From: an uncultured Bdellovibrionales bacterium
Lineage (GTDB): Bacteria > Patescibacteriota > Minisyncoccia > Moranbacterales > DUUL01
Direction: 5' to 3'
Length of the DNA: 64,000 nt
Assembly (NCBI GenBank): GCA_964556685.1
Contig: CAZKWX010000001.1
Location: 11,417 to 75,416, forward strand
In this document: one piece after another, positions 1,705 through 60,318 of the stretch
How the letters are laid out: each line of letters begins with the position of its first letter
Numbering within the stretch: position 1 is the first letter of the stretch
Made by a program: the position numbers and the translations under genes
The notes under the pieces: model-generated
The model's input: the letters and a program-made list of their open reading frames with translations, nothing else
What the model was told of the DNA's origin: nothing
The model's database searches: none

Positions 1705-2205
1705 ATGGAACAAATTTTCAACACATTTCATATCGACTGGAAATTATTGATTGCGCAAGCAATTAATTTTGCCATTGTAGTAGCCGTGCTTTATAAATTT
1801 GCCTACAAGCCTCTCATGAAGCACATGAAGGAAAGGACCAATAAGATTGATCAAGGGCTGAAAGATGCAGAAAATGCAAGAAAACAACTGGAAAAAGCTC
1901 AAGACGAGAAAGAAGCTGAGATTGTAAAAGCGAAAAAAGAGGCTAGGCTGATTTTGGAAGGGGCTCAGAAGCAAGCTGAAAAAAATAAAGGTGCAACGGT
2001 GGCCGAGGCAAAAGAAGAAGCAGAAAAAGTCGTCCAACAAGCCAAAAAGCAAATCGAAGGAGAGAAAGAAAAAATGCTTGTCGAAGTTCGATCTGAAGTT
2101 GGCCAGTTAGTCGTGGCCGCTACTGAAAAAGTGGTGGATGAAAAAATCGACGACAAAAAAGATAGGAAGTTAGTCGAAGAGGCAGTAAGAGATATTAGTA
2201 GATGA
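1705..2205 (+). CDS. atpF: F0F1 ATP synthase subunit b
   Basis: N-terminal TM helix followed by a long charged coiled coil (K/E/A rich). Position between atpE and atpH. Confidence 0.8.
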   Translation: MEQIFNTFHIDWKLLIAQAINFAIVVAVLYKFAYKPLMKHMKERTNKIDQGLKDAENARKQLEKAQDEKEAEIVKAKKEARLILEGAQKQAEKNKGATVAEAKEEAEKVVQQAKKQIEGEKEKMLVEVRSEVGQLVVAATEKVVDEKIDDKKDRKLVEEAVRDISR

Positions 2206-2345
2206 TGAATTACGTGTAGTTAGAAGAATTGTAAGTCTTTAATTTACGGATTACAGATCAATTACAAATATACAGATAGATTAAAAAATTAGATATCGCC
2301 TAAATCTGTATATCTGTACAAATTTGTAATCAGTAAAGAGTCCAT

Positions 2346-2750
2346 ATGAAAGTTTCACCAAAGCAATATGCAAAATTGATATATGAGACAACCGAAGGTC
2401 TAAAAAAAGATCAGGTTTCTGGTGAATTAATAAAGATTGCTGAACTTGTCAAAAAGAACCGAGATGAAAGAAAAATGAGAAGCATCGAAATGGAATTTGA
2501 AAAACTCTTGAAGGAGAGAGAAGGCTTGGTTGATGCAAGCGTGGTGAGCTCAAAAGAGTTAAGCAAAGTTAAACTGGGAGAAATTCAGAAAAAAATTGCT
2601 AGTCAAAAGGGAACCAAGAAAGAAAAAGTTAAGTTGGAAAATATTGTTGATGAGAATATTAAAGGAGGTTTAGTGGTCAGAATTGAAAATGAAATTTTAG
2701 ATGCAAGTGTGTTGAATAGAGTCAATAAACTTAGTGCAAACTTAAGCTAA
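2346..2750 (+). CDS. atpH: F0F1 ATP synthase subunit delta (short form)
   Basis: C-terminal IKGGLVVRIENEILDASVLNRVNKL matches the delta/OSCP C-terminal motif (iGGi...D.Sv...L). Sits between atpF and atpA. Shorter than the typical delta. Confidence 0.65.
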   Translation: MKVSPKQYAKLIYETTEGLKKDQVSGELIKIAELVKKNRDERKMRSIEMEFEKLLKEREGLVDASVVSSKELSKVKLGEIQKKIASQKGTKKEKVKLENIVDENIKGGLVVRIENEILDASVLNRVNKLSANLS

Positions 2751-2777
2751 ATATAATTCCAATTAAATTAAAATATA

Positions 2778-4340
2778 ATGGACAAAGATTTTATTATCGA
2801 ACAACTGAAAAAGCAAATTTCTGAAACTGACACCTCGGCGGAAACTAAAAAGGTCGGCACAGTGGTGGAAGTGGGCGATGGAATTGCCAGGATTGTCGGT
2901 CTTGATGATGCGATGATGGCAGAAATGATTCGGTTTAACGTTGAGAAGGGCAAATCAGAGGATGACTTGTTTGGCGTTGCGATGAACCTGGAAGAAGGCC
3001 AGGTTGGCGTCATCATCATTGGAGATGACTCAAAGATCAAAGAAGGCACGGAAGTTCAATCAACTGGAAAAATTCTATCAGTCCCAGTGAATGAAAAGAT
3101 GATTGGTCGAGTGATCAATCCAATTGGACAGGCCATTGATGGGGAAGATCAAATTGTGGCAGAAGAATTCTATCCTTTGGAGAAAATTGCTCCAGGAGTG
3201 ATGACTCGAGAGGGAGTGAAAGAACCAGTTCAGACTGGAATTAAAGCCATCGATGCCATGATTCCCATTGGACGAGGGCAAAGAGAACTGATCATTGGTG
3301 ATCGGCAGACCGGAAAAACTGCCATTGCTGTTGACACAATCATCAACCAAAAAGGGCAAGACATGATCTGCATCTATGTGGCGGTGGGACAAAAGAAATC
3401 AAAAGTGGCTCAAATCGTGGCCAAGCTCAAAGAGCACGAAGCCATGGATCATACCATTGTAGTGGTGGCAGGGGCTTCAGATCCAGCGGCCTATTCATAT
3501 TTCGCACCCTATGCTGGCTGTGCTATTGGGGAATATTTCATGGATCAAGGAAAAGACGTGCTTGTCGTTTATGATGATCTTTCAAAGCATGCTTGGGCCT
3601 ATCGACAAGTCTCGCTTCTTTTGAGACGACCACCTGGACGAGAAGCCTATCCGGGAGATGTTTTCTATTTGCACTCAAGACTCTTGGAAAGAGCCGCCAA
3701 GCTGAACGAAGACAATGGAGGTGGATCATTGACGGCACTTCCGATTATTGAAACTCAAGCCGGTGATATCTCGGCCTACATTCCAACCAACGTAATCTCG
3801 ATCACTGATGGACAGATTTTTTTGGAATCAGACCTTTTTTATCAAGGCATTCGGCCGGCGCTCAATGTGGGGCTTTCTGTTTCTCGAGTGGGATCAGCCG
3901 CTCAGACCAAGGCGATGAAAAAAGTGGCCGGGAAGGTGAAATTGGAACTGGCTCAATTCCGAGAACTGGAAGCTTTCACAAAATTTGGATCAGATCTGGA
4001 TAAAAAAACTAAGCAGAGAATTGATCGAGGCTATCGCACAGTGGAGATTCTGAAACAGACTCAATATGCTTCGATGTCGATGGAAGACCAGGTGTTGTTG
4101 ATGTGGTCGTTGACCAATGGATATTTGGATGATGTGGAAGTGGAAAAAGTCAAAGAATGGGAGGAGGATCTTTTGAAATATGCTCACGAAGCAGCTAAGG
4201 ACATTTTGGATGAAATTGGCAAGAAGAAAAAGTTGGACGAAAAGTTGGAAGAAAAAATGAAAGGACTGGTAGAAGATTACAAATCGACAAGAAATGATGG
4301 AAGTAAGGAGGGAGACGAGGGCAAGCAGAATAAGGAATAA
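2778..4340 (+). CDS. atpA: F0F1 ATP synthase subunit alpha
   Basis: Walker [19 protein letters not shown]. Alpha-specific C-terminal region. ~520 aa. Confidence 0.95.
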
Positions 4341-4443
4341 TTATCAATAATCAATAAACAATTATCATTCAATAATCAATGATCAATTTCAAAATGAAAA
4401 TTCATTGATAACTGATAATTGTAAATTGAAAATTTTATAAGAT

Positions 4444-5424
4444 ATGGCGAAAGGAGCTAAAGAAATACAACGAAGAATAAAATCAGTTGGCAACACTCGA
4501 AAAATCACTCGAGCGATGGAAATGGTGGCCGCTGCCAAGATGAAGAAGGAAGTTTCTCGCGTTTTGGCTATTCGGGCATATGCTCATAGCGCCCAGATGG
4601 TTTTAACATATCTATCTCGAGCATTTGCTAAACAGAAGCATGGTTTGTTAGAAGTACGAGAAGTCAAGAGAATCTTAGTGGTCTTAATTACATCGAACCG
4701 GGGACTATGCGGTGCTTACAACACTCAGGTGATAAAAAGACTCATAGACCAAGTGGAAAACCCAAAACTTCTGAAAATCAACCGAGTCGGAACAAAGAGA
4801 ATCGAATCAACAGTGCCGGATGATCAGATTGAGTTTGACTTTATCGCAGTGGGAAAGAAAGGCTTTGAACAACTCAATGCACGAGGAAAAAATGTGATTG
4901 CTGAATTTGAAGATTTGAATTACACACCAACACCAGATTCTGTTTGGCCATTAGCCAAGATTGCTATTGATGACTATCAGAATGCAAATTATGACAAAGT
5001 AGTAGTAGCCTACACCGACTTCAAGAACTCTCTGATTCAAGAACCAAAGCTGCGTCAGATTTTGCCGATTTCAAAGATTGACTTGGAAAAGCAAATTGAG
5101 GAAATGAGTTCTGGGATTTCTGGTGATGAAATTCAGGAAACAGAATCAAAGGAAGAAGAGCAGATTGATTATACGATTGAACCAGATCCGCAAGTTGTGG
5201 TGAAACATATGTTGCCGAGGTTGGTGGAAATGCAGCTTTATCATGCCATTTTAGAATCTAATGCTTCACGAGAATCGGCTCGGATGATGGCTATGAAAAA
5301 TGCTAATGAAGCAGCAGGAGAAATGATACAGCTGTTGCAATATTCATATAACCAGATTCGCCAGATGGGAATTACTCAAGAGATTGCGGAGATCACTTCG
5401 GGAAGAACGGCACTTGAGGATTAG
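4444..5424 (+). CDS. atpG: F0F1 ATP synthase subunit gamma
   Basis: N-terminal IQRRIKSVGNTRKITRAMEMVAAAKMKK and C-terminal NQIRQMGITQEIAEI coiled-coil motifs characteristic of gamma. Confidence 0.9.
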   Translation: MAKGAKEIQRRIKSVGNTRKITRAMEMVAAAKMKKEVSRVLAIRAYAHSAQMVLTYLSRAFAKQKHGLLEVREVKRILVVLITSNRGLCGAYNTQVIKRLIDQVENPKLLKINRVGTKRIESTVPDDQIEFDFIAVGKKGFEQLNARGKNVIAEFEDLNYTPTPDSVWPLAKIAIDDYQNANYDKVVVAYTDFKNSLIQEPKLRQILPISKIDLEKQIEEMSSGISGDEIQETESKEEEQIDYTIEPDPQVVVKHMLPRLVEMQLYHAILESNASRESARMMAMKNANEAAGEMIQLLQYSYNQIRQMGITQEIAEITSGRTALED

Positions 5425-5518
5425 TTTTTATAAGCTAGTTATACGCTTTAATACTATCGCCAGTATTACGCCAGCGTATCACCAGCGTTTAGTCAAGGTG
5501 TATTACTGGCTTATATTT

Positions 5519-6073
5519 ATGTTGGAAGTTGAAGCTAAAATTAGAGTAAAAGACCTGGAAACCGCTAGAAAGAATCTCAAAAAGCTGGGAGCCAAAAAAG
5601 TGGAAGAAAAAGTCCAAATTGATAAAGTGTATGGGCGAGATTCTGATTTAGACGACGAGCATAAGGTAATTGAAGGAAGATTCAGCGCCAGGATTAGAAA
5701 GACTAACAAAGTCTGCCGGATTGATTTTAAGGAGATTTTGCGAGGCAAACCAGGCGACGAACATAACATTGAACTGAGTGACATTGATGAGGGTGATAAG
5801 TTTTTACAAAAATTGGATTATAAAGAGGCCTTCACATCGGAGAAGAAAAGGGAAATCTATGGATATGAAAGTTTTGAAATTTGCTTGGATGACTTTCCAA
5901 AACTTGGCTATTTCATTGAAGCAGAAAAAAAGATTGAAGAAGGAGAAAGCAAGGAAGATGCGTATAAAAGTTGTGTGGAAGTTTTGAAGAAAATTGATCC
6001 AAGGGGAGAGATTGAAAACAAAAAATATGGGGATTTGATTCAGGAAGTGATTAATGAGAAAGGGAAGTTTTAA
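5519..6073 (+). CDS. CYTH-domain protein (class IV adenylyl cyclase / triphosphate tunnel metalloenzyme-like)
   Basis: N-terminal MLEVEAKIRV carries the ExExK signature of CYTH. Acidic clusters downstream. The tool ORF 5384 start overlaps the atpG tail; the in-frame ATG at 5519 is preferred. Confidence 0.55.
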   Translation: MLEVEAKIRVKDLETARKNLKKLGAKKVEEKVQIDKVYGRDSDLDDEHKVIEGRFSARIRKTNKVCRIDFKEILRGKPGDEHNIELSDIDEGDKFLQKLDYKEAFTSEKKREIYGYESFEICLDDFPKLGYFIEAEKKIEEGESKEDAYKSCVEVLKKIDPRGEIENKKYGDLIQEVINEKGKF

Positions 6074-6080
6074 CACACAT

Positions 6081-6157
6081 GTCATCTCGACCGAAGCGAA
6101 GTGGAGAGATCTCATGACAACTCACGAGATTCCTCGACTACGCCCGGAATGACAGTG
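6081..6157. repeat. MITE-like element, family B (ATGTCAT..CGA ... TCG..ATGAC terminal inverted repeats)
   Basis: Shares the GAGATCTCATGACAA / GAGATTCCTCGACTACGC core with copies at 34258, 43219 and 60996. Confidence 0.7.
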
Positions 6158-6165
6158 AATTAATT

Positions 6166-6654
6166 ATGAAAAAGTACAATAAAACAGTTCAAGACATTAA
6201 AACGCTGCTGGAGAAAAATGATATCGAATACAAGTTCTTTGAGCACAAACCAGTCAGGACTAGTGAAGAGGCAGTGAAAGTAAGGCCAGATTATAGTTTG
6301 CAACAAGGAGCCAAAGCTATGATTGTCAAGCCCAAAATTAATGGCGAAAGAACATTCGTGATGCTGGTTTTGCCGGGAGACAAGCGATTTGACAACAAGA
6401 AGGTGAAAAAAGTTTTGGACGCTAAAGATGTTACTTTCGCATCCGAAGAAGAAGTCGCCAAATTGACAAATGGAGTAATCCCAGGAGGAGTTCCACCGTT
6501 TGGTAATTTGTTTGGACTGAAAGTGGTTGCTGATCCTGATTTATTTAAAAATGATGAAATAGTTTTTAACTGTGGTGATCAGAGCGCTTCAATTGCAATG
6601 AAGAGTGAAGACTATGAACGAATTGTCAAACCAGAAATTGTCGAGATAACTTAG
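6166..6654 (+). CDS. YbaK/ProX-type aminoacyl-tRNA deacylase domain protein
   Basis: ~160 aa. GVIPGGVPPFGNLFG and CG..SASI motifs resemble the YbaK/EbsC trans-editing domain. Confidence 0.6.
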   Translation: MKKYNKTVQDIKTLLEKNDIEYKFFEHKPVRTSEEAVKVRPDYSLQQGAKAMIVKPKINGERTFVMLVLPGDKRFDNKKVKKVLDAKDVTFASEEEVAKLTNGVIPGGVPPFGNLFGLKVVADPDLFKNDEIVFNCGDQSASIAMKSEDYERIVKPEIVEIT

Positions 6655-6718
6655 GAGCAATTTGAAATTTGAAGTTTGTAATTTTTATTCAATTTATAAT
6701 TAATCAATTTCGAATTGA

Positions 6719-8134
<1,416 letters not shown>

Positions 8135-8212: not shown

Positions 8213-8256
8213 ATAAAGAAATGCTGTAGTGGTACGACATGCTATATTGAAAAATA

Positions 8257-8288
8257 GTATATACCAACGTATATACGAATGTATATAC
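8257..8288. repeat. GTATATAC x3 array (family D)
   Basis: gtatatac-caac-gtatatac-gaat-gtatatac: three copies of the palindromic 8-mer at 12-bp phase. Confidence 0.8.
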
Positions 8289-8307: not shown

Positions 8308-9006
8308 ATGGTATTGCTCGGACTTACAACTTCAAAAAGATCAAATTGGCAGCAGAAAATAAGAGAAGCGTCATATTATAATATTGAAAAAATATCACTT
8401 TTCCCTACGTATTCACGGATATCTGAAAGAAAAAAACTCTACGAAGCGATTGATGGGAGTACCATTGTTGAAATACCTCATGTGCATCTGTGCCATGATA
8501 TAGAATTGTGGGAGCTAGATTATTTTGTTAAAGAATACAATACCCAAATTTTTAACATACACACTGAGAGATTATTTCCGCTGGAGAATGATATTTCAAA
8601 GTATAATTCCAAGATATTCGTTGAAAATGCAGGACTACCCACAGAGAATGAATTAAAGAAATTCGGTGGTTTCTGTATAGATTTTGCACATTGGGAAGAC
8701 TATATAAGATTAGAGGGAGAAAAGTACAATCCAGAAGAGGATAAAATCAGGGACTGGATGAAGAAGTATGATGTTGGTTGTGGTCACGTGTCAGCAATTT
8801 CAGAAGAAATACACGAAGATGAGGGCATTCCAGGAAGAATGTGTTATGCCTCGCATTGGATGAATAGTCTGGATGATATAAAATATATGAAAAAATATGT
8901 CAAGTATGTTTCTAAATATGTTAGTATTGAGTTGGATAATCCTTTCAAGGAACAACTCAAGGTGAAGAAATACTTAGAGAAAATTCTATATAAAAGGATC
9001 AATTGA
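8308..9006 (+). CDS. hypothetical protein, possibly xylose-isomerase-like TIM-barrel (sugar phosphate isomerase/epimerase) fold
   Basis: Conserved H/E/D-containing segments (IFVENAG, CIDFAHWED, CGHV). Inserted between atpD and atpC. Weak assignment. Confidence 0.3.
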   Translation: MVLLGLTTSKRSNWQQKIREASYYNIEKISLFPTYSRISERKKLYEAIDGSTIVEIPHVHLCHDIELWELDYFVKEYNTQIFNIHTERLFPLENDISKYNSKIFVENAGLPTENELKKFGGFCIDFAHWEDYIRLEGEKYNPEEDKIRDWMKKYDVGCGHVSAISEEIHEDEGIPGRMCYASHWMNSLDDIKYMKKYVKYVSKYVSIELDNPFKEQLKVKKYLEKILYKRIN

Positions 9007-21104: not shown

Positions 21105-22907
21105 TTATAAAACATCCTTCCAAAAAAGCCTTTCTGTTTTTCCTGACCCTCCTTCTTCATCTGGAGCTAGCTCTTTTTCTTTTTTAGTTGGTAGTTTTTC
21201 TTTTTGGACTTCCAGCTGAAAAACTTCTAACTGTCCAATTTGTTTCGAATCAACTATTTTAGTATAAGGTTGAATTTTTTTGTTGATAGAATTCTTGCCG
21301 CCAGATTTTGTTACTAAAGCAAAAATAGTGTCGACATTTTCCAAGTCACTCGACCCTCCTGCATAGGAATAGTCTATTTCGTTTTGAAGGGAAAGCAAGT
21401 ACTTCGTTGGCAGCATGTATTCTGCTTTAGTGTTATAAATCAATGTCAATCCGGGATTATTTTTGAGCATATACTCAATAGCTTTTTCAAATTGGCCTAA
21501 GGTAACCCCATCTTGGTTTTTGAGAATCAGTGTTCGGTTAGTATCAAAACTTTTTTCTTGAGAAAGTTCGTTTTCCCTGAACCAAGCGCAGGTGCCGAAA
21601 ATATTTAATAATAAGAAAATTGCTGAAATGATAAAAATTAATGGAAGATAATTTTTCACCACTCTTTTTTCTAGTGCCGAAAACCAAAGAGCGATGATGA
21701 TAAATGGGATGGGGAAAACCGGGACAAAATAACGTGGTCTGAGCAGGTACGAAGTAGTAATAGTAACTAAAAAGAACAGTACTATCCAGATAATGAGCAT
21801 GAAAAGAAAGTTTTTATCATTCTGCTTTGATTTAACCTTGTATTCTTTAATGGCCAGATAAATACCAGAAAAAATGAAAAGTAATCCAAACCCAACAGTT
21901 ATGGGGTCAGCTTTGTGGCCTTTTCGGTGACTGAATGAAGTGGTGATCAGTGAATAACCCTTAGCTTGTTCGCGGAAATTTCGAATGATTTTCTTGTGGA
22001 ACTTTTTGTCCTTTGATTTGGCCTCGAAGGCACCAAAAAAGTTTTTAGTGTTTGAAAAATCAGTCTTGAAATCACTAATAATCACTGGGGAATAAATTAT
22101 TCCGAAAATTAAGAGAGTTGTCAAAACATAAAAAAGAGAATTTTTGGAAGAAAGGATGTTTTTAACGTTTCCTGATTGAGGTTTCACCGCGAGTACTCGC
22201 GGTGAAACCTCTCTTGAGCGGTCCCAAATATAATAAACAATGAAAACTACCGAAATTGCAATTAAAGCAAAGGCGGCATAAAAATGAAGTTGCGATGCGA
22301 CAGCAAAGGCAAAGGCCCAAAGAGCAATCCAGCCAATTTTTTTCCAAAGATTCTTATTTTCTTGTAGATGACGCACATGTGCGTCATCTACAGAAGAAAA
22401 ACGCAATAGAGCATAAATTGTCAATAGCATGAAAAACGGCACGGAATTTGGATTCCAGGAGAAACGGGAATACTGAATAATTAAGAAGGAAAAAGAATAA
22501 AGTAATGTGGCTAAAAGAGCTGGCACTGGCTTGAAATAGAGTCGCAAAAATAAATAGAAGAGTGGAATGACTAGAATCGAAAACAGCAAGTCTGGATAGG
22601 CAAAAACGTCAGGGGACGAAGATTTAAAAATCGCACCAGAGGTCCATTGCATGTAATAGTAGGCTGGTCCTAATCGCAAGAAATCTGTGCCACCAGTTTC
22701 AGTTGAGACTTTCGTAGCCCTTGGTCCCAATAGCGGCAAGTTTTCTGCTCCATTTTCAATGGCTGGTTTCAAAAGGGAAGCATCTCGTGCCTGGTCCCAC
22801 TTAAAAAACAGCCAATCATGATGTTGATAGGTTCGAACCCAAATTGCTCCGGCGATGATCAGAACAAGAGCAACGCCAACCCAGATTTTTGTTTTGTTGT
22901 TATTCAT
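21105..22907 (-). CDS. GT-C family membrane glycosyltransferase, paralog 4
   Basis: MNNNKTKIW...VRTYQHHDWLFFKWDQARD. Same architecture as paralogs 2 and 3. Confidence 0.6.
   Translation of the reverse strand: MNNNKTKIWVGVALVLIIAGAIWVRTYQHHDWLFFKWDQARDASLLKPAIENGAENLPLLGPRATKVSTETGGTDFLRLGPAYYYMQWTSGAIFKSSSPDVFAYPDLLFSILVIPLFYLFLRLYFKPVPALLATLLYSFSFLIIQYSRFSWNPNSVPFFMLLTIYALLRFSSVDDAHVRHLQENKNLWKKIGWIALWAFAFAVASQLHFYAAFALIAISVVFIVYYIWDRSREVSPRVLAVKPQSGNVKNILSSKNSLFYVLTTLLIFGIIYSPVIISDFKTDFSNTKNFFGAFEAKSKDKKFHKKIIRNFREQAKGYSLITTSFSHRKGHKADPITVGFGLLFIFSGIYLAIKEYKVKSKQNDKNFLFMLIIWIVLFFLVTITTSYLLRPRYFVPVFPIPFIIIALWFSALEKRVVKNYLPLIFIISAIFLLLNIFGTCAWFRENELSQEKSFDTNRTLILKNQDGVTLGQFEKAIEYMLKNNPGLTLIYNTKAEYMLPTKYLLSLQNEIDYSYAGGSSDLENVDTIFALVTKSGGKNSINKKIQPYTKIVDSKQIGQLEVFQLEVQKEKLPTKKEKELAPDEEGGSGKTERLFWKDVL
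22364..22391. repeat. 28-bp palindrome GTAGATGACGCACATGTGCGTCATCTAC embedded in-frame in the GT-C paralog 4 CDS
   Basis: Near-copy of the 21048 palindrome. Encodes an extra ...DDAHVRHLQ... segment absent from paralogs 2 and 3 at the aligned position. Confidence 0.5.
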
Positions 22908-23094
22908 TCTTGCTCCAGTCTCTGATTAAAATCGTTTTCTTTTCATCATCAACTTCCAATACGACTTTCTGTTTTTCTCTCCACTTCCATTTTCGAACAA
23001 TTTCAATAGGCAATGTTACACCATAGCTAGTTCCACTAGATGTTTTGGTGATTTTTCGAATGAAATGTTCTTCGATTTTTCTTCTAGTTTTCAT
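22900..23094 (-). CDS. AbrB/SpoVT/MazE-family swapped-hairpin DNA-binding protein
   Basis: YGVTLPIEIVRKWKW...VVLEVDDEKKTILIRD matches the AbrB N-domain (VVIPIELRR..G....L.I.VDDEKIIL). Overlaps the paralog 4 start by 8 nt. Confidence 0.55.
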   Translation of the reverse strand: MKTRRKIEEHFIRKITKTSSGTSYGVTLPIEIVRKWKWREKQKVVLEVDDEKKTILIRDWSKNE

Positions 23095-23103
23095 TTTTTT
23101 GCT

Positions 23104-23125
23104 CCACCTGAGATATCTCAGGTGG
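23104..23125. promoter_or_regulatory. 22-bp perfect palindrome CCACCTGAGAT|ATCTCAGGTGG overlapping the RBS of the AbrB-like gene
   Basis: The left arm CCACC is the complement of the GGTGG Shine-Dalgarno of the minus-strand gene starting at 23094. Confidence 0.4.
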
Positions 23126-26070: not shown

Positions 26071-26208
26071 TCCCTCCCCTTGGTAAAGGGAGGTTGGGAG
26101 GGGTTCGTCAGAATGTCAGGAGTCGCCGACCATTTTAACTAACTCCCCGAGCAAAGCTCATCCGCTTCGCTCCACTCCACTCTTACCAAGAGGGGGAAAA
26201 GAAATGAA
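26071..26208. repeat. Family A composite repeat (GGGTTCGTCAGAATGTCAGGAGTCGCC...CTAACTCCCCGAGCAAAGCTCATCCGCTTCGCTCCACTCTTACCAAGAGGGGGAA)
   Basis: A ~100-nt core recurs at 47141, 54515, 60195 and partially at 30381. It contains three internal hairpins. Confidence 0.75.
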
Positions 26209-26226
26209 TTTCTCAATTTAAAATAG

Positions 26227-29880: not shown

Positions 29881-29960
29881 TGTTTTTCTTCCCCTCTTCT
29901 TAAGAGGGGACTGAATTCATTGGTTTTGAATTCAGGGAGTTCGTCGGGAGGCTGTTATGT
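29881..29960. repeat. hairpin-module repeat (CCCCTCTT-CTT-AAGAGGGG + CTGAATTCA-TTGGTTTT-GAATTCAG)
   Basis: The TGAATTCA-N-TGAATTCA hairpin module recurs at ~36518, ~47164 and ~58785. Confidence 0.6.
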
Positions 29961-30380: not shown

Positions 30381-30418
30381 CTAACTCCCCCTAACCCCCT
30401 CTTGCCAAGAGGGGGAAT
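30381..30418. repeat. partial family A element (CTAACTCCCCCTAACCCCCTCTTGCCAAGAGGGGGAA)
   Basis: Matches the 3' half of family A. Confidence 0.55.
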
Positions 30419-30430
30419 TCATATAATTTA

Positions 30431-32422
30431 CTAATTTCGCTTATAAATCACTGTGTTAGTTGAAGCATATACCTTAGAGAAATTATTTGAATTGTCAAAT
30501 TGGGCGTTGTCATAACCTTTTTTGAGCATGATGTATTTCACTCCGGTTTCGTCGTAACACTGCACTCCACGCTCGGTGTCTGGCTGAATAACCATGTCTC
30601 TAGTGCAGGTTTCTCGTTTCTTGTATATGTCGTCATAGCGTTTGTCGAAAGTCCGCGAAAGCGGATATTTATATCCCCGCATAAAAAATATTTTTATCCA
30701 CGAGTCTCCGGCCAAATGAGTATGGTCCTTGAGAACTTGTTCATCTTTAGTGGTTCGATCAGCCAAATACATTGAGGCCAAATAGGTTTGAAAAACTTCC
30801 TGATTTTTTCTGGGATCATGGTCACGAGCTGAGTCAGAAATGTCGGAAAAACCAGAAATAAATCCAGTTCCGAAGATGACTAGCCCGACAAGAATGGCCA
30901 ATGCCTTGGAAAGTCTTCGAGCAGAGAGGGCAAAAATTAGTACAACAGAAATGGCTGCCAAAATCGACATAGGGTAAGTGATGTAGCTAACGATTCTGTT
31001 GGAAGGAATGTCAACCTTCAAAAAGGTAGGTTTAACACTCATCAAAATGATCATGACAGTCCAAGCGAGCAAAAATCCCAGCGATGCCAAGATAAGAATG
31101 TTTTTCTTCTCATTGCCATCTTTGCCAGATTTTTTGAAGACAAAAAGCATAACTAGTGCGATGACGGCCAATCCGATCATTCCATAGAGAAATCTCCAAG
31201 GTCCAGCGCTGAGTATCACTGCTCCGATGGTCAGTCCAGTTCGAGTGGCCTTGACGGGTGTGCCCACGGCGGTGTCAATTGCTTCAGGATTGAGATAGGA
31301 TGGCTCGCGAACAAAGAAAAAGAAGAGGATCAATAAAATTACCAGGATCATGTTGCGGAAGGCAAAAAACGGTTTCGCATAAACTAGGAGGGCAGAAAAA
31401 AACTTTTTCAAATTGAAACGATAATAAATCAAAAGCGCTACGAGTAAAACTACCAAAAATCCAACCAGAGCATATAAAAATATATAACTGGAAAGATGAT
31501 GAGTATAGACCATAGTGGCTACAGCCAGAATAAAAGCCATGGCTAAGTTGCGACTCTTGAATTTCAGTGTTGTGACAAAAAGATAGATTACGAAAGGGAT
31601 GAAGAAGTTGCCAATGATGTTGCCAATCACGCCGCCAGAAACAAATTTGGCTCCCGGAGATGAAATTGCATAAAAAGTACCAGTGATGAGCAGAACAAAG
31701 AATGCAATATTTTTTGCCGTTCTTTTTTTGGTAAAATATTCACTCAAACGATAGGCTAAAATAAATATGGCCAGTAATGAAAAAATATTGATTAGAAACA
31801 AAGTGACAACCGGCATGGCACTGACAAAGGGAATCTTCGTCAATGCAGCAACCGAAGCAAAAACGATGTGTTCACCGATAATGAAATCTGGTTGGCCATC
31901 ATAGTCAGGCAGTGTTCCATTGGTGGTGATGTAACTGGACCAATACATGTGATGGCCCATGTCGGTGGTTTGGGGCATGATGCCGCGAGAAACATAGAAA
32001 CCACGAATGGCGACAGCGAACAATAGAATCAAAATAAATATTAAAATCTGCCGATAGGAGAAATGCCGCAAAGAGGAGAAGTAATCTTCTTTCGGTGTCA
32101 TCCCGGACTTGCCGTGCCCGCTCTTTGGAGGGATCCGGGATCCATTCTCTCTAGTCCTAAGTTTATAAACACCCCAGCAAAGAGCAGAGAACAGCAATAT
32201 GACCATCAAAATCCATTTTCCTGTGATGGGAATGCTGCCAAAATCCATCAGCATGACCAGAAAGTTGGTGGCAGTCAGACTCAGTCCGAAAGAAATGACT
32301 AACTTTTCCAATGCAGAAAACCGGTTTTGAAAGCGACCCAAAATAGCTAACATAAAAAAGAATCCCGGAATAAAAAGGACCAAAAAAATTGATAAATAAA
32401 GTTTTATTATGGGTATTAGCAT
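30431..32422 (-). CDS. large polytopic membrane protein with C-terminal extracytoplasmic domain (possible GT-C-like glycosyltransferase / polymerase)
   Basis: ~13 TM helices plus a ~150-aa soluble C-terminal domain. Sits in the glycan cluster. Family assignment uncertain. Confidence 0.45.
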   Translation of the reverse strand: MLIPIIKLYLSIFLVLFIPGFFFMLAILGRFQNRFSALEKLVISFGLSLTATNFLVMLMDFGSIPITGKWILMVILLFSALCWGVYKLRTRENGSRIPPKSGHGKSGMTPKEDYFSSLRHFSYRQILIFILILLFAVAIRGFYVSRGIMPQTTDMGHHMYWSSYITTNGTLPDYDGQPDFIIGEHIVFASVAALTKIPFVSAMPVVTLFLINIFSLLAIFILAYRLSEYFTKKRTAKNIAFFVLLITGTFYAISSPGAKFVSGGVIGNIIGNFFIPFVIYLFVTTLKFKSRNLAMAFILAVATMVYTHHLSSYIFLYALVGFLVVLLVALLIYYRFNLKKFFSALLVYAKPFFAFRNMILVILLILFFFFVREPSYLNPEAIDTAVGTPVKATRTGLTIGAVILSAGPWRFLYGMIGLAVIALVMLFVFKKSGKDGNEKKNILILASLGFLLAWTVMIILMSVKPTFLKVDIPSNRIVSYITYPMSILAAISVVLIFALSARRLSKALAILVGLVIFGTGFISGFSDISDSARDHDPRKNQEVFQTYLASMYLADRTTKDEQVLKDHTHLAGDSWIKIFFMRGYKYPLSRTFDKRYDDIYKKRETCTRDMVIQPDTERGVQCYDETGVKYIMLKKGYDNAQFDNSNNFSKVYASTNTVIYKRN

Positions 32423-35607: not shown

Positions 35608-36219
35608 GTGACTATAATTCACGATTATCAGCCAAGCAATAAGGAAAAGTTAATAAGCGTGCTATTTCCAAAACTAGCACCTCCAAAACTGTCATTTTCC
35701 AGAAGAATGTGTAGGGAATTACTGGATGAATTCGGAGTGATTCTTGAGGATGAATTACTACCGCTTGGGGGAAAGGAAGAACATATCGTAAGTGCTTTTT
35801 TCGGAGTTTGTGGGAGGCAAGAGGAAACAATGAGGCAGATTTCAAATGAACTTGAAATCTGCTACACACACGTTTCAAGGTTGAAAACGAGAACTCTTTT
35901 TCAGTTAAGACATCGTGCAGGAAAAGAATTTATGGATGTCATAGCTAGGATATCAAAACAATGGGAAGGATTGAAAAAAGAGGTAACGGATTTAAGAAAA
36001 ATTAATTATCCATTCCCGGAAAAAATCTCGGTTTCAGGCCTCTTGTCCAAAGAAATTGTTGACATTCTTGAAGAAAAAAAAGTGTTTAACCTGAAAAAGT
36101 TAGCAACGTGCCCATTCTGGAAATTTAAAAGAATTGGCAAAAAACGCCAGAGAATAATAAAAAGTGTTCTAAAAAAACACATGCTTTATCCAGGTATGGA
36201 AGAGGAGGATTTCAGGTAA
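35608..36219 (+). CDS. putative transcription regulator: sigma-70 region-4-like HTH fused to an RNAP alpha-CTD-like helix-hairpin-helix domain
   Basis: EEHIVSAFFGVCGRQEETMRQISNELEICYTHVSRLKTRTLFQLR fits the sigma region 4 pattern. The C-terminal LLSKEIVDILEEKKVFNLKKLATCPFWKFKRIGKKRQRIIKSVL fits an alpha-CTD/HhH pattern. Confidence 0.45.
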   Translation: MTIIHDYQPSNKEKLISVLFPKLAPPKLSFSRRMCRELLDEFGVILEDELLPLGGKEEHIVSAFFGVCGRQEETMRQISNELEICYTHVSRLKTRTLFQLRHRAGKEFMDVIARISKQWEGLKKEVTDLRKINYPFPEKISVSGLLSKEIVDILEEKKVFNLKKLATCPFWKFKRIGKKRQRIIKSVLKKHMLYPGMEEEDFR

Positions 36220-36338: not shown

Positions 36339-36370
36339 GTATATACGAACGTATATACGTTGGTATATAC
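36339..36370. repeat. GTATATAC x3 array (family D)
   Basis: gtatatac-gaac-gtatatac-gttg-gtatatac. Preceded by the perfect palindrome CTCCATAGAG-AA-CTCTATGGAG. Confidence 0.8.
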
Positions 36371-36419: not shown

Positions 36420-36585
36420 AGTTTCCTCCCCTTGCTAAGGGTAGAGAATTGCGAATGAGTAATTCTTAAGGAGGGGTTAGTCTAAATGGCAGTAGTCGCC
36501 GGTCATACAGACGAACTCCCCTGAATTCATTACTAATAAATTCAGCACCCTCTTACTAAGAGGGGGGGGGAGCAAGAAGAAAAAA
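36420..36585. repeat. cluster of hairpin modules (CCTCCCCTT...AAGGAGGGG, CTGAATTCATT..AAATTCAG, CCCTCTTACTAAGAGGGGGGGG)
   Basis: Same module types as at 29881, 47141 and 58770. Confidence 0.55.
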
Positions 36586-39640: not shown

Positions 39641-39666
39641 ACTCTCATATATGCATATATGAGAGT
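39641..39666. promoter_or_regulatory. 26-bp perfect palindrome ACTCTCATATATG|CATATATGAGAGT (family E)
   Basis: Identical copies at 50291 and 50801. A half copy at 47289. Confidence 0.7.
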
Positions 39667-47094: not shown

Positions 47095-47140
47095 CCTTTT
47101 ATGAACTGTATAATACCTTAAGCTATGAAAAGCCTTTTTG

Positions 47141-47284
47141 TCCCTCCCCTTCGAAAGGGGATGTTGAATTCATTAGTTTTGAATTCAAAGGGGTTCGTCA
47201 GAATGTCAGGAGTCGCCAGCCATTTTGACTAACTCCCCGAGCAAAACTCATCCGCTTTGCTCCACTCTTATCAAGAGGGGGAAG
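47141..47284. repeat. Family A composite repeat (full copy with upstream hairpin modules)
   Basis: CCCTCCCCTTCGAAAGGGGATG, TGAATTCATTAGTTTTGAATTCA, GGGGTTCGTCAGAATGTCAGGAGTCGCC ... CTCTTATCAAGAGGGGGAA. Confidence 0.75.
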
Positions 47285-47288
47285 GTCG

Positions 47289-47306
47289 TATGCATATATG
47301 AGAGTA
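47289..47306. repeat. half copy of family E palindrome (TATGCATATATGAGAGTA)
   Basis: Right arm only, directly abutting the family A copy. Confidence 0.5.
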
Positions 47307-47345
47307 CAGTAAAAGAAATAAGAGTTTTAGTTAATTTTAAATTAT

Positions 47346-50290: not shown

Positions 50291-50316
50291 ACTCTCATAT
50301 ATGCATATATGAGAGT
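50291..50316. promoter_or_regulatory. 26-bp perfect palindrome (family E), ~55 nt upstream of the TrpR-like gene
   Basis: ACTCTCATATATGCATATATGAGAGT. Candidate operator or attenuator. Confidence 0.7.
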
Positions 50317-50800: not shown

Positions 50801-50826
50801 ACTCTCATATATGCATATATGAGAGT
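50801..50826. promoter_or_regulatory. 26-bp perfect palindrome (family E), between the TrpR-like stop and the gltX start
   Basis: 13 nt after the stop at 50787 and ~27 nt before the gltX ATG. Confidence 0.7.
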
Positions 50827-54089: not shown

Positions 54090-54503
54090 ATGCACTCTTC
54101 TCCCGTTCCACAAGGTTTCTCCAAATCTTTTTATATCATCGGAGTTTTAATTTTGATTATTTTTGTATTTTTGGCCTACCACTACGTTCCCTCTCGCAGG
54201 TATGTTGAATTTATTGGCGAAGGATCATCAATGGAACCAACTCTTTTTCACGGCGACACTCTCATAGTTGACCCCCGAGCACTCCCCCAGGAAAATGATC
54301 TGATTGTCTTTAATTGCAAAACCTGTGAAAAGAATAATGAGGAAATTATGACTAAACGGCTCTACGAAATAAATTCTGAAGGATGCTATTGGCTATTGGG
54401 TGACAATCGAGAAAATTCATTTGACTCAAAAGACTATGGATGGTTATGTGAAGATGATATAGAATATCATGGGGTGGTGAAAGAAATAGTTAATGAACAG
54501 TGA
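54090..54503 (+). CDS. lepB: signal peptidase I (S26 family)
   Basis: N-terminal TM helix. SMEPTL catalytic Ser box. KRL (Lys box). GDNRENSFDSKDYGW box E. Confidence 0.7.
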   Translation: MHSSPVPQGFSKSFYIIGVLILIIFVFLAYHYVPSRRYVEFIGEGSSMEPTLFHGDTLIVDPRALPQENDLIVFNCKTCEKNNEEIMTKRLYEINSEGCYWLLGDNRENSFDSKDYGWLCEDDIEYHGVVKEIVNEQ

Positions 54504-54514
54504 GCACCGGCCTT

Positions 54515-54575
54515 CTAACTAACTCCCCGAGCAAAGCTCATCCGCTTCGCTCCACTCTTACCAAGAGGGGGAAAA
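54515..54575. repeat. family A element (3' portion)
   Basis: CTAACTAACTCCCCGAGCAAAGCTCATCCGCTTCGCTCCACTCTTACCAAGAGGGGGAAAAG. Confidence 0.7.
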
Positions 54576-54582
54576 GAACATA

Positions 54583-57149: not shown

Positions 57150-57300
57150 AAATTTCTATTTCTTTCTCCAATCCCTTATTTCCAGCAATCCCCTGCCTTT
57201 GTCCTTGATGGACATTTTTTGTCGTTCTTTCCAGCCGTATTTATCAACAATATCTCTTGGGATTGTCAGAGAACAACTATATCGCGTGCCATTGTATTGA
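57150..57300. repeat. ~150-nt leader element, copy 1 (upstream of the 56921..57124 gene)
   Basis: Shares TTCTCCAATC...TTCCAGCAATCCCCTGC and CCTTTGTCCTT...TGTTCTTTCCAG..TATTT.TCAAC...TTGGGA.TG with copy 2. Confidence 0.6.
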
Positions 57301-57322
57301 ATGTTTAATTAGAACACTCAGA

Positions 57323-57667: not shown

Positions 57668-57950
57668 TGAGCCTGGTCACTATTTCCTTCTCCAATCTCT
57701 CACTTCCAACAATCCCCTGCTCCCGGTTGAATACTGCTTCTATCGTCGCAATTCAACGGGACAGGCCTTTATCTTCTCCGCCAATCCTTTATCTCGAGAA
57801 GACCACGACCTTTGTCCTTTACGGTGAATTTCTGATGTTCTTTCCAGTCATATTTTTCAACGAATTCTTTGGGAATGACCAAGGCATAGCTGTGAGACGA
57901 CATCTTGAGCAGTTTTCTTGTAGGCGTTTTCATTCGAATAAAATTAAGAT
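57668..57950. repeat. leader element, copy 2, with ~90-nt internal partial duplication
   Basis: Same blocks as copy 1, split by an insert (TCCCGGTTGAATACTGC...TTCTCCGCCAATCCTTTATCTC...) that re-iterates the 5' block. Confidence 0.6.
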
Positions 57951-58010
57951 TTTATTCGCGCAGATCGACGCTGACTAAACGCAGACTCACGCGGAATGTT
58001 TGATCAAGCC

Positions 58011-58042
58011 GTATATACAGTCGTATATACGTGGGTATATAC
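58011..58042. repeat. GTATATAC x3 array (family D)
   Basis: gtatatac-agtc-gtatatac-gtgg-gtatatac. Lies 10 nt downstream of the stop of the HAD gene on the other strand. Confidence 0.8.
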
Positions 58043-58052
58043 TTTTATACAG

Positions 58053-58667
58053 TTATCTCTCTGGATTATATTTTAATGACTCAATGTCTTTGCTGAATTT
58101 ATCAAAATCAACATACTGAACAAATTTGATTCCCAGCTTCTCTGAATTTTTTTTATTCTTCAAATTGTTATCAAAAAAAATACATTCATCCCCTTTATGT
58201 TCAATCACATCCAACCCCTTCTTAAAAAATTCAATGTCCGGTTTGATTAATCCCAAATTAAAAGAATAGACACATTTATCAAAAAATTTCTCATAGTCAA
58301 CCTTCTTTCTGTGTTCCTTGACTTCCATTCTGCTCATGTTTGAAAAAATGTAAAGCCTAAATTTTCCAAACAGCTGATTTTCAATGAATTTCAATATTTT
58401 TTCATTTGTTTCGATATGCTCATTAAAAAACTTGGCATAGAAATCTTCCTCTGATATGTCTTTTGCAGAAATGCCAATATCAGAAATAAAATTGGCATAA
58501 AATTCATGCTCGTCGATTTTATCAATGTCTCTCAAGTCCCGCCACTTTTTCCAAGCAGGTTCAATTTCCCCGTTTGGGTGAAACGTATTTTTTAGCCAAG
58601 CATTAAATGATTTATCGTCATATATCCTGATGACGCCACCAACGTCAAATAATATTATGTTTCTCAT
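58053..58667 (-). CDS. HAD-superfamily hydrolase
   Basis: ILFDVGGVI (DxG motif I). S/T motif II. K and FFDN motif IV. Confidence 0.65.
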   Translation of the reverse strand: MRNIILFDVGGVIRIYDDKSFNAWLKNTFHPNGEIEPAWKKWRDLRDIDKIDEHEFYANFISDIGISAKDISEEDFYAKFFNEHIETNEKILKFIENQLFGKFRLYIFSNMSRMEVKEHRKKVDYEKFFDKCVYSFNLGLIKPDIEFFKKGLDVIEHKGDECIFFDNNLKNKKNSEKLGIKFVQYVDFDKFSKDIESLKYNPER

Positions 58668-58684
58668 GTCTGATTGTGATTTTC

Positions 58685-58716
58685 GTATATACGAACGTAT
58701 ATACGTGGATATATAT
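58685..58716. repeat. GTATATAC array (two perfect copies plus a degenerate ATATATAT)
   Basis: gtatatac-gaac-gtatatac-gtgg-atatatat. Lies 18 nt upstream of the HAD start. Confidence 0.75.
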
Positions 58717-58898
58717 GTTTAAACTTCGTATGTCTTCTTCAGAGTTGCTTTTGTTAATAGTGATCACCAGCCCTTCGACTAACTCCCCTGAATTCAAAAC
58801 TAATGAATTCAGTCCCCTCTTAACAAGAGGGGAAATAGAATTTCCGCCGGAGTTTGTGCCGCACTTGCCGTATCCGCCTTTGGAGGAATGCGGTGCGG

Positions 58899-58918
58899 GA
58901 ATATACGAACGTATATAC
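58899..58918. repeat. GTATATAC array (two copies)
   Basis: gaatatac-gaac-gtatatac. Confidence 0.65.
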
Positions 58919-58977
58919 GCTTTGGCACGTCTCAGTCAACCACCCCTTCACCCCTCCTTTCTAAGGAGGGGAAATAT

Positions 58978-60148: not shown

Positions 60149-60194
60149 AATGCTTTTTTAAATTAGGAAATATTTATTCATTTTTCCTTAAAAC

Positions 60195-60254
60195 ATCAGG
60201 AGTCACCAGCCATTTTGACTAACTCCCCCTAGCCCCCTCTTACCAAGAGGGGGA
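60195..60254. repeat. family A element (short variant)
   Basis: CAGGAGTCACCAGCCATTTTGACTAACTCCCCCTAGCCCCCTCTTACCAAGAGGGGGAAC. Confidence 0.65.
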
Positions 60255-60318
60255 ACTATTGAACATTTGTAATTCACGTATTCGCGTCACTCGCATTCAT
60301 TCGCGGATTAGCATCGCA

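Follow-up and report, generated by a model that had tools for sequence, protein, structure and literature searches.

Several regulators built on the swapped-hairpin, or AbrB-type, DNA-binding module control their own genes through phased repeats or palindromic operators, and these are the closest described counterparts of the system considered here. The latter was found in a stretch of 64,000 nucleotides (contig CAZKWX010000001.1, positions 11,417 to 75,416 of the forward strand), referred to below as the window; it consists of five arrays of the palindromic octamer GTATATAC, iterated with a 12-bp phase, and of a gene for a 54-aa protein of the AbrB/MazE fold (57933..57769, minus strand). As judged from sequence comparison, the arrays are probably the operators of this transcription factor.

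Regulators with a related fold or operator layout

MraZ is an AbrB-fold repressor that autoregulates through three to four phased repeats at its own promoter, with one 'cradle' for each box, cooperative binding, and the transcription start lying inside box 1 (PMC12957436). It shares the swapped-hairpin/AbrB module with the window protein. However, MraZ is about 150 aa long, carries two AbrB-like halves per chain, and assembles into octamer or dodecamer rings, whereas the window protein is a single half-domain of 54 aa. The operators differ as well: MraZ boxes are GTG[G/T] direct repeats with 6-nt spacers and a 10-bp period, while in the window there are 10–12-bp palindromes with a 12-bp period. 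Finally, MraZ heads the dcw operon, whereas the neighbours of the window regulator are HAD, pyrH, and NUDIX genes, with no link to dcw. The identification of the regulator as MraZ was therefore rejected on domain count, repeat type, and gene context.

The same fold is found in the MazE/VapB/AbrB-type antitoxins, in AbrB, and in SpoVT (PF04014), which are autoregulated via palindromic operators, and a MazE–MazF pair in one of the loci collected in this study (L041) has the identical layout of three GTATATAC units. In contrast to these proteins, the family of the window regulator has neither a toxin partner nor a C-terminal toxin-binding or oligomerisation domain. Moreover, AbrB sites are loosely defined, while the putative sites of the window family are sharply defined and tiled. 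Among the best matches in both fold and sequence are Sso7c4, C68 (from pSSVx), and C56 (from pSSVi), which likewise are proteins of about 50–60 aa made up of the swapped-hairpin domain only, but they are archaeal or viral, and the similarity is remote (E-values of 0.2–0.3 by profile). They have been characterised as chromatin-like proteins or general binders of DNA, and no defined phased operator array is known for them.

A functional analogy is provided by MetJ, which binds tandem 8-bp palindromic met boxes arranged head to tail, with one small β-sheet dimer on each, in a cooperative manner. MetJ differs in having a ribbon-helix-helix fold, an 8-bp period, S-adenosylmethionine as a co-repressor, and an unrelated sequence.

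No paper linking bacteria of the candidate phyla radiation (CPR) to AbrB-type regulators or to GTATATAC arrays was found in a literature search, with subscription journals outside its coverage. The superfamily itself is known; what is apparently new is a widespread family in Patescibacteria lineages with a sharply defined and diversifying operator grammar.

Palindromic arrays in the window

The arrays are as follows.

8257-8288: array 1, perfect triple GTATATAC-CAAC-GTATATAC-GAAT-GTATATAC, 19 nt upstream of the ATG at 8308
36339-36370: array 2, perfect triple GTATATAC-GAAC-GTATATAC-GTTG-GTATATAC, a near-perfect 32-nt palindrome
58011-58042: array 3, perfect triple GTATATAC-AGTC-GTATATAC-GTGG-GTATATAC
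58685-58716: array 4, GTATATAC-GAAC-GTATATAC-GTGG-ATATATAT, the third unit having two mismatches
58899-58918: doublet, GAATATAC-GAAC-GTATATAC, amid hairpins resembling repetitive extragenic palindromic (REP) elements in the pyrH-HAD intergenic region

The four triples, including the degenerate third unit of the last one, and the doublet had been listed in an earlier reading of the sequence alone (the sequence-only reading), and all of them were found again at the same coordinates. The window contains 12 perfect copies of GTATATAC, every one of which belongs to one of the five arrays with exact 12-bp phasing, against an expectation of 0.12 copies; none of 100 dinucleotide shuffles reached 12. 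Thus, the octamer does not occur at the frequency that composition predicts, the doubt that the sequence-only reading itself had raised. A relaxed search of the window for weaker copies gave no extra arrays, with near-match pairs only at lags of 12 and 24.

The nine spacers read CAAC, GAAT, GAAC, GTTG, AGTC, GTGG, GAAC, GTGG, and GAAC; the two proposed earlier as a consensus, GAAC (three times) and GTGG (twice), are indeed the commonest. The unit consensus in the window is aCGTATATACGt. In the perfect triple arrays of other genomes (see below), the bases flanking the octamer are complementary in 48 of 68 arrays, while about 17 would be expected, and such symmetry fits the site of a symmetric dimer. 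The 'spacer' therefore appears to be the outer part of a palindromic unit of 10–12 bp, the units being tiled head to tail without any true spacer.

The DNA of the window, which is found only in metagenome assemblies, has about 38% GC and bears an F-type ATP synthase operon and genes for ribosomal protein L27, signal peptidase, and an archaeal-type UMP kinase. Its owner is a bacterium of the Patescibacteria (CPR). The ATPase and the archaeal-type UMP kinase had prompted a reading of the arrays as archaeal TATA boxes, which was dropped because L27, signal peptidase, and the F-type ATP synthase operon are bacterial and because all named homologues belong to Patescibacteria. The arrays were also considered as the sigma-70 promoter itself; this was rejected, as the only matches were weak (9/12) and did not exceed those in shuffled sequences. 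Rfam and tRNA scans of the window were empty.

The 54-residue regulator

The window contains the following members of the regulator family.

57769..57933, minus strand: gene of the 54-aa AbrB/MazE-fold protein (MKTPTRKLLKMSSHSYALVIPKEFVEKYDWKEHQKFTVKDKGRGLLEIKDWRRR), the proposed array binder
57680..57724, minus strand: 3′ remnant of another regulator copy (GSRGLLEVRDWRRK followed by a stop)
57156..57308, minus strand: truncated, start-less paralogue (...YSCSLTIPRDIVDKYGWKERQKMSIKDKGRGLLEIRDWRKK), with the N-terminus missing and no array upstream
22900..23094, minus strand: second intact paralogue of 64 aa, with no GTATATAC array

The 54-aa protein matches PF04014 (MazE/AbrB/SpoVT) with E=3.1e-5 and 24.3 bits, just under the gathering cut-off of 24.7, and a precomputed match to the same family is present for most of its homologues. 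When the family profile was compared with the Protein Data Bank (PDB), the N-domain of AbrB was matched with E=0.03, and the archaeal single-domain proteins with E-values of 0.2–0.3. An AlphaFold2 (AF2) model of the single chain, built with 106 homologues, has a mean predicted local distance difference test score (pLDDT) of 89.1 and comprises strands at residues 9-12 and 15-17, a helix at 22-27, and strands at 36-42 and 45-50. This order, β-β-α-β-β, is that of a swapped-hairpin half-barrel. The top 19 Foldseek matches in the PDB are all of the SpoVT/AbrB type (MazE, Sso7c4, C68, C56, VapB/VapB1, AbrB-N, and SpoVT), with template modelling (TM) scores of 0.5-0.7. By its modelled fold, the 54-aa protein is thus predicted to be a remote member of the SpoVT/AbrB/MazE superfamily.

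The family is large, comprising at least 2092 clusters at 90% identity, and its members are 52–64 aa long; in the model of the window protein, the swapped-hairpin domain takes up the entire chain. Wherever the source names seen for family members included an organism, this was a Patescibacteria lineage or an unclassified one ('uncultured bacterium'). Several sources label homologues as antitoxins, as a function name only, and NCBI uses a generic superfamily label.

As for the other copies in the window, the truncated paralogue at 57156..57308 is likely a pseudogene. The intact 64-aa paralogue is preceded by a unique, perfect 22-bp palindrome, CCACCTGAGATATCTCAGGTGG (23104-23125), located 9 nt before its ATG, which could serve as its own operator or else terminate transcription of the upstream gene. 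Between array 3 and the 54-aa regulator gene, the leader of 77 nt (57931-58010, minus strand) is strongly folded (a 120-nt fragment gives -31.7 kcal/mol, z -3.1), and one of its elements, the AT-rich hairpin GAAUAAAAU...AUUUUAUUC, lies directly against the start codon.

Arrays upstream of regulator homologues

The link between protein and array was examined in both directions. Starting from the protein, 49 metagenome loci were fetched by protein similarity alone, a four-sequence alignment being used as the query. By inspection, nearly all of these 49 loci have two to four palindromic units with a 12-bp period just before the regulator ATG. When, more strictly, a perfect 8-bp palindrome had to recur with no more than one mismatch, a repeat at lag 12 was found in 22 of 47 regulator upstream regions and in 12 of 785 control windows from the same loci, while the other lags between 9 and 15 showed no enrichment. 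Some of the positive 'control' windows are in fact additional same-class arrays of the locus, such as the three TAGARGCYTCTA doublets of L104. A self-similarity detector, applied to 53 distinct upstream regions, found an array in 29 of them, and 26 of these 29 end 0–20 nt from the ATG.

The sequence of the palindrome changes from lineage to lineage: GTATATAC, GTACGTAC, GTGTACAC, TAACGTTA (four units), TCACGTGA (four units), TGAACGTTCA, TAGAGGCCTCTA, GTCTGTTC, and GCTACGTAGC were observed. The changes go along with the type of protein. Proteins of the 'SSHSY' type are accompanied by GTA[TC][AG]TAC-like units, those of the 'SAYS[YF]' type by TAGAGGCYTCTA, and those of the 'SG(S/T)MY' type by TAACGTTA or TCACGTGA. 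A constant architecture with a changing palindrome is what a protein–operator pair predicts, and the operator palindrome appears to have diversified together with the regulator protein, although shared ancestry could contribute to the pairing of protein subgroups with operator classes. In addition, single loci may carry extra arrays, as in L081 (2932-2955 and 3951-3974) and L104 (1544, 2739, and 8024). Loci with more than one class of palindrome, or with several arrays of the same class, suggest several regulator/operator pairs and multi-site regulons per genome, and the extra same-class arrays in L104 and L081 fit the latter.

These data also bear on the possibility that the arrays act without any protein, either as REP-like elements or miniature inverted-repeat transposable elements (MITEs), or as RNA or DNA hairpins for termination or mRNA stability. 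The window is rich in other intergenic repeat families, and the arrays can fold as RNA: arrays 1 and 4 have a minimum free energy of -9 to -10 kcal/mol (z about -2.3), and array 2, which lies beside a terminator hairpin, reaches -20 kcal/mol (z -4.3). But a REP or MITE family would share a larger element with conserved flanks, while the flanks of the five window arrays have nothing in common, the shared part being the 32-nt array itself, without a terminal repeat. Moreover, many arrays in other genomes have direct spacers (TTAG/TTAG, CTAA/CTAA, or AATA/AATA) that make long hairpins impossible, which argues against an RNA-only role. Finally, strict linkage to one protein family, turnover of the sequence, and constant 12-bp phasing are not expected of a selfish repeat. 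A protein-independent role is thus very improbable.

Triple arrays in other genomes

In the opposite direction, the perfect triple was searched for in one genome per species (185,579 species) and was found in 68 loci, mostly from metagenome-assembled genomes (MAGs) of Patescibacteria/CPR. A back-of-envelope estimate that assumes uniform base composition puts the number of chance matches at about 0.004. The hosts include Saccharibacteria, Moranbacteria, Paceibacterota, Doudnabacteria, Nomurabacteria, and others; one MAG supplies 20 of the 68 loci, and several others supply two to four each. Viral contigs yielded only three triples, none of them with the CPR regulator. In at least 12 loci, the array lies 7–25 nt before an open reading frame (ORF) of 52–62 aa that belongs to the family of the window regulator and bears its signature, RKLxKxxxxSYxxxIPKExxxxxGWRExQK. 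A hidden Markov model of the window protein detected a homologue in 15 of the 68 loci (8 kb each), and in 14 of them, it is adjacent to the array. Other triples precede the genes for UvrA, RuvB, LigA, GlmS, MurB, NUDIX, and histidine phosphatase proteins, as well as a DHH phosphoesterase, SNase, an HD hydrolase, and a paralogous family without an assigned function.

Three candidate binders encoded in the window had been put forward in the sequence-only reading: a sigma region-4-like protein, an AbrB-like protein, and a TrpR-like protein. Of these, the AbrB-like protein, which is the 54-aa regulator, is now singled out by its linkage to the arrays in both search directions. That the arrays are bound instead by the sigma-r4-like protein of 203 aa (35608-36219) or by the TrpR-like one is considered very unlikely. 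The former is separated from array 2 by 120 nt and contains a helix-turn-helix resembling that of sigma region 4, yet it has no homologue in the array-bearing loci L004-L132, and its gene is convergent to array 2 rather than downstream of it.

The genes located downstream of some 65 family members are heterogeneous, or there are none, and no toxin family recurs among them. They include TatD (three times), HAD (twice), histidine phosphatase, RNase H-like, deaminase-like, HD, enolase, and MurB genes, together with a putative type I restriction subunit, the latter judged from sequence without a family scan. Two of the links recur in different operator classes: the regulator is linked to a HAD gene both in the window and in L104, where a distant HAD homologue is directly downstream, and to a histidine phosphatase gene in L046 and L091.

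The neighbours also bear on another view of the 54-aa protein, namely that it is an antitoxin of a type II toxin–antitoxin (TA) system, with the arrays as the TA operator and the extra arrays as decayed or duplicated TA promoters. In Pfam, the best match is to 'MazE_antitoxin', and several sources call the homologues antitoxins. A genuine MazE–MazF pair stands beside the GTATATAC triple in L041, and a VapB-like gene does so in L029. The copies of the regulator in the window, duplicated and decayed, are each followed by a small ORF of 67 aa with a Shine–Dalgarno sequence, and a palindromic operator at its own promoter is indeed what an antitoxin gene would have. An adjacent cognate toxin (MazF, PIN, or similar), though, is missing across the approximately 65 family loci, and so is the C-terminal toxin-binding tail, the protein being a DNA-binding domain of about 50 aa and nothing else. 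Furthermore, the arrays also front housekeeping genes (UvrA, RuvB, LigA, GlmS, and MurB). An antitoxin role is accordingly considered quite unlikely.

One MAG among the hosts of triples, FW300_bin.57, deserves separate mention. At least 8 of its 20 triples (L006, L014, L019, L024, L025, L031, L051, and L066) precede members of one paralogous protein family of 160–560 aa, with the N-terminus M.PNCQQIA..L.EIQKLKA.FD and no Pfam match. A degenerate fourth unit, GTATAGCA, follows many of the arrays in this MAG.

Candidate target genes in the window

Two genes of the window are fronted by arrays, in addition to that of the regulator, and a promoter-like element precedes one of them.

58053..58667, minus strand: gene of a HAD-IA phosphatase of 204 aa, GC 31%, a proposed regulated target
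8308..9006, plus strand: gene of a 232-aa protein, GC 34%, a proposed regulated target
8240..8248, plus strand: extended -10-like element TGcTATATT, ending 8 nt before array 1

The HAD protein gives Pfam HAD_2 and NCBIfam HAD-IA / pyrimidine 5′-nucleotidase-like matches, all of them under the equivalog cut-offs, whereas Pfam and NCBIfam scans gave no match for the 232-aa protein. The element at 8240..8248 would set the transcription start at the first unit of array 1. Array 4 begins 17 nt before the HAD ATG and is the proposed operator of this gene. The doublet is situated 183 nt farther upstream on the minus strand (214 nt from start to start) and is possibly an auxiliary or a decaying site.

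Array 3 follows the HAD stop codon at a distance of 10 nt and, at the same time, is located 77 nt upstream of the 54-aa regulator gene. The sequence-only reading had presented arrays 3 and 4 as bracketing the HAD gene within 20 nt of its stop and start. The distances (10 and 17 nt) bear out the presence of the flanking arrays, but array 3 is more aptly assigned to the regulator gene, upstream of which it lies and which is on the same strand, so that the pair would reflect two adjacent regulated genes and not a bracketed cassette.

A role of the arrays as recombination sites, also mentioned in the sequence-only reading, would make the HAD gene a cassette that can be excised or inverted. The two flanking arrays share a 20-nt direct repeat, CGTATATACGTGG[G/A]TATATA, the HAD gene has a GC content of 31% against about 41% for its neighbours, its orthologues occupy four different contexts, and gene remnants nearby point to past rearrangement. 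Against this, the ORFs that were scanned, from 54 to 63.5 kb, include no integrase, recombinase, or transposase, the remaining arrays bracket nothing, and the HAD orthologues elsewhere are array-free. Moreover, in relatives, a single copy of the array is found directly before the regulator start codon, and all recovered contigs of the window strain are identical across the locus. The cassette idea is thus unsupported, and we regard it as most improbable.

The GC contents of the two array-fronted genes, 58053-58667 (31%) and 8308-9006 (34%), are below the 40–46% of their neighbours, which hints at arrays being placed on accessory or recently acquired genes.

Proposed mode of action

If the arrays are operators of the 54-aa protein, two chains would form one swapped-hairpin DNA-binding module, and each module would read one palindrome of 10–12 bp (aCGTATATACGt). 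Two to four modules would be placed head to tail at 12-bp spacing. Since the units are tiled without a spacer, neighbouring dimers would touch and bind cooperatively over 24–48 bp. The array would span or trail the transcription start at 0–20 nt from the start codon, and because it would cover the start or the early transcribed region, its occupancy should repress the gene. Targets of the factor in the window would be its own gene (array 3), the HAD gene (array 4, perhaps together with the doublet), and the 232-aa gene (array 1). We infer that the protein binds the arrays and does so with this stoichiometry, cooperativity, and direction of regulation; the comparative evidence supports the earlier suggestion that the phased palindromes are cooperative sites of a dimeric transcription factor.

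Several observations weigh against this assignment. Within the window, array 2 lies between convergent genes, faces no gene start, and is found 5 nt before a terminator-like hairpin on the minus strand; it is proposed to be an orphan or decoy site. The gap of 77 nt between array 3 and the regulator ATG is atypical in comparison with the usual 0–20 nt, and the region between array 3 and the regulator gene contains a weak promoter-like match. Of 29 regulator loci, about 11 have a -10-like hexamer 8–31 nt ahead of the array, an enrichment that is no more than suggestive; array 1 of the window shows this arrangement too. The Foldseek E-values are weak (0.2–2.5) because the domain is tiny. In the scan for triples, a gene-orientation count over the 68 loci showed no strong bias to gene starts, although this count is crude, as ORFs under 60 aa were ignored and it was further blurred by long spurious ORFs that cross arrays. 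Triples outside CPR adjoin other regulators, namely MazE–MazF (L041, Eubacterium plexicaudatum), a VapB-like protein (L029), and MarR (L021), and those beside MarR or MazE mean that the array sequence alone does not identify its binder. Finally, the proposed targets are not conserved as such: the HAD orthologues of four other genomes (44–67% identity), found in four different contexts, and the 232-aa orthologues of three other genomes are accompanied by neither arrays nor the regulator, which implies that the targets are lineage-specific.

Gene regulation in CPR/Patescibacteria is almost unstudied, as few of these bacteria are cultivable, and a regulator family and a recognisable operator grammar are now paired. 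With a grammar of two to four palindromes tiled at 12 bp and placed shortly upstream of the start codon, regulons would become readable from MAG sequences. The family would also offer a natural series of protein–operator pairs for understanding how a minimal AbrB fold reads DNA, as well as a compact set of orthogonal repressor–operator parts. For the window itself, the operator assignment would account for all five arrays, and it predicts joint control of the HAD gene, the 232-aa gene, and the regulator gene. It might even be supposed, though we think this rather doubtful, that widespread and paralogously expanding mini-repressors of about 55 aa, each with a co-diversified, 12-bp-tiled operator, make up a major and undescribed layer of control in the reduced genomes of Patescibacteria. 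Such a layer may be aimed preferentially at accessory low-GC genes for hydrolases, phosphatases, and nucleases (nucleotide scavenging) or, in a silencing-like manner, at recently acquired genes.

Orthologues of the candidate target genes

The 232-aa family occurs mostly in Patescibacteria, with a few weak matches outside, one of them named as a Pacearchaeota archaeon. In the three other genomes, the orthologues are placed inside rmlC-rmlB-X-rmlD sugar operons without intergenic space (L123-L125, 6001-6720), being flanked by dTDP-glucose 4,6-dehydratase-like and dTDP-4-dehydrorhamnose reductase-like genes. This context suggests that the 232-aa protein may have a role in dTDP-sugar synthesis.

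The HAD orthologues in L126-L129 have a conserved AGTTATCTTTTT-like motif about 25 nt before the ATG; the HAD gene of the window lacks this motif. In L127 (3970-4640), an 18-nt inverted repeat (GAGTTATCTTTTTC / GAAAAAGATAACTC) brackets the HAD ORF. One of the contexts in which the HAD orthologues are found resembles a defence island, with AlwI restriction enzyme, Mrr, UDG, and SNase genes.

Other repeats and gene arrangements in the window

A second operator-like motif of the window is the perfect 24-bp palindrome CTCTCATATATGCATATATGAGAG (28 bp with the TA flanks), which is present in three copies, with 0 expected (39642-39665, 50292-50315, and 50802-50825). Each copy is located 24–200 nt upstream of a gene on the plus strand, and a half-copy lies near 47289-47315.

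Among the several REP-like intergenic families are G-rich hairpins, CCCCTCTTnnnAAGAGGGG, and composite units of 45–110 nt, with frequent stacking downstream of genes. Such elements were found at 26099-26217, 29885-29937, 30381-30436, 36477-36570, 47124-47288, 54479-54578, 58777-58837, 58947-58976, and 60184-60274. Lastly, the F-type ATP synthase operon (1705-8134) contains genes for a CYTH-domain protein and a tRNA_edit (YbaK-like) protein inserted between the genes for the gamma and beta subunits.

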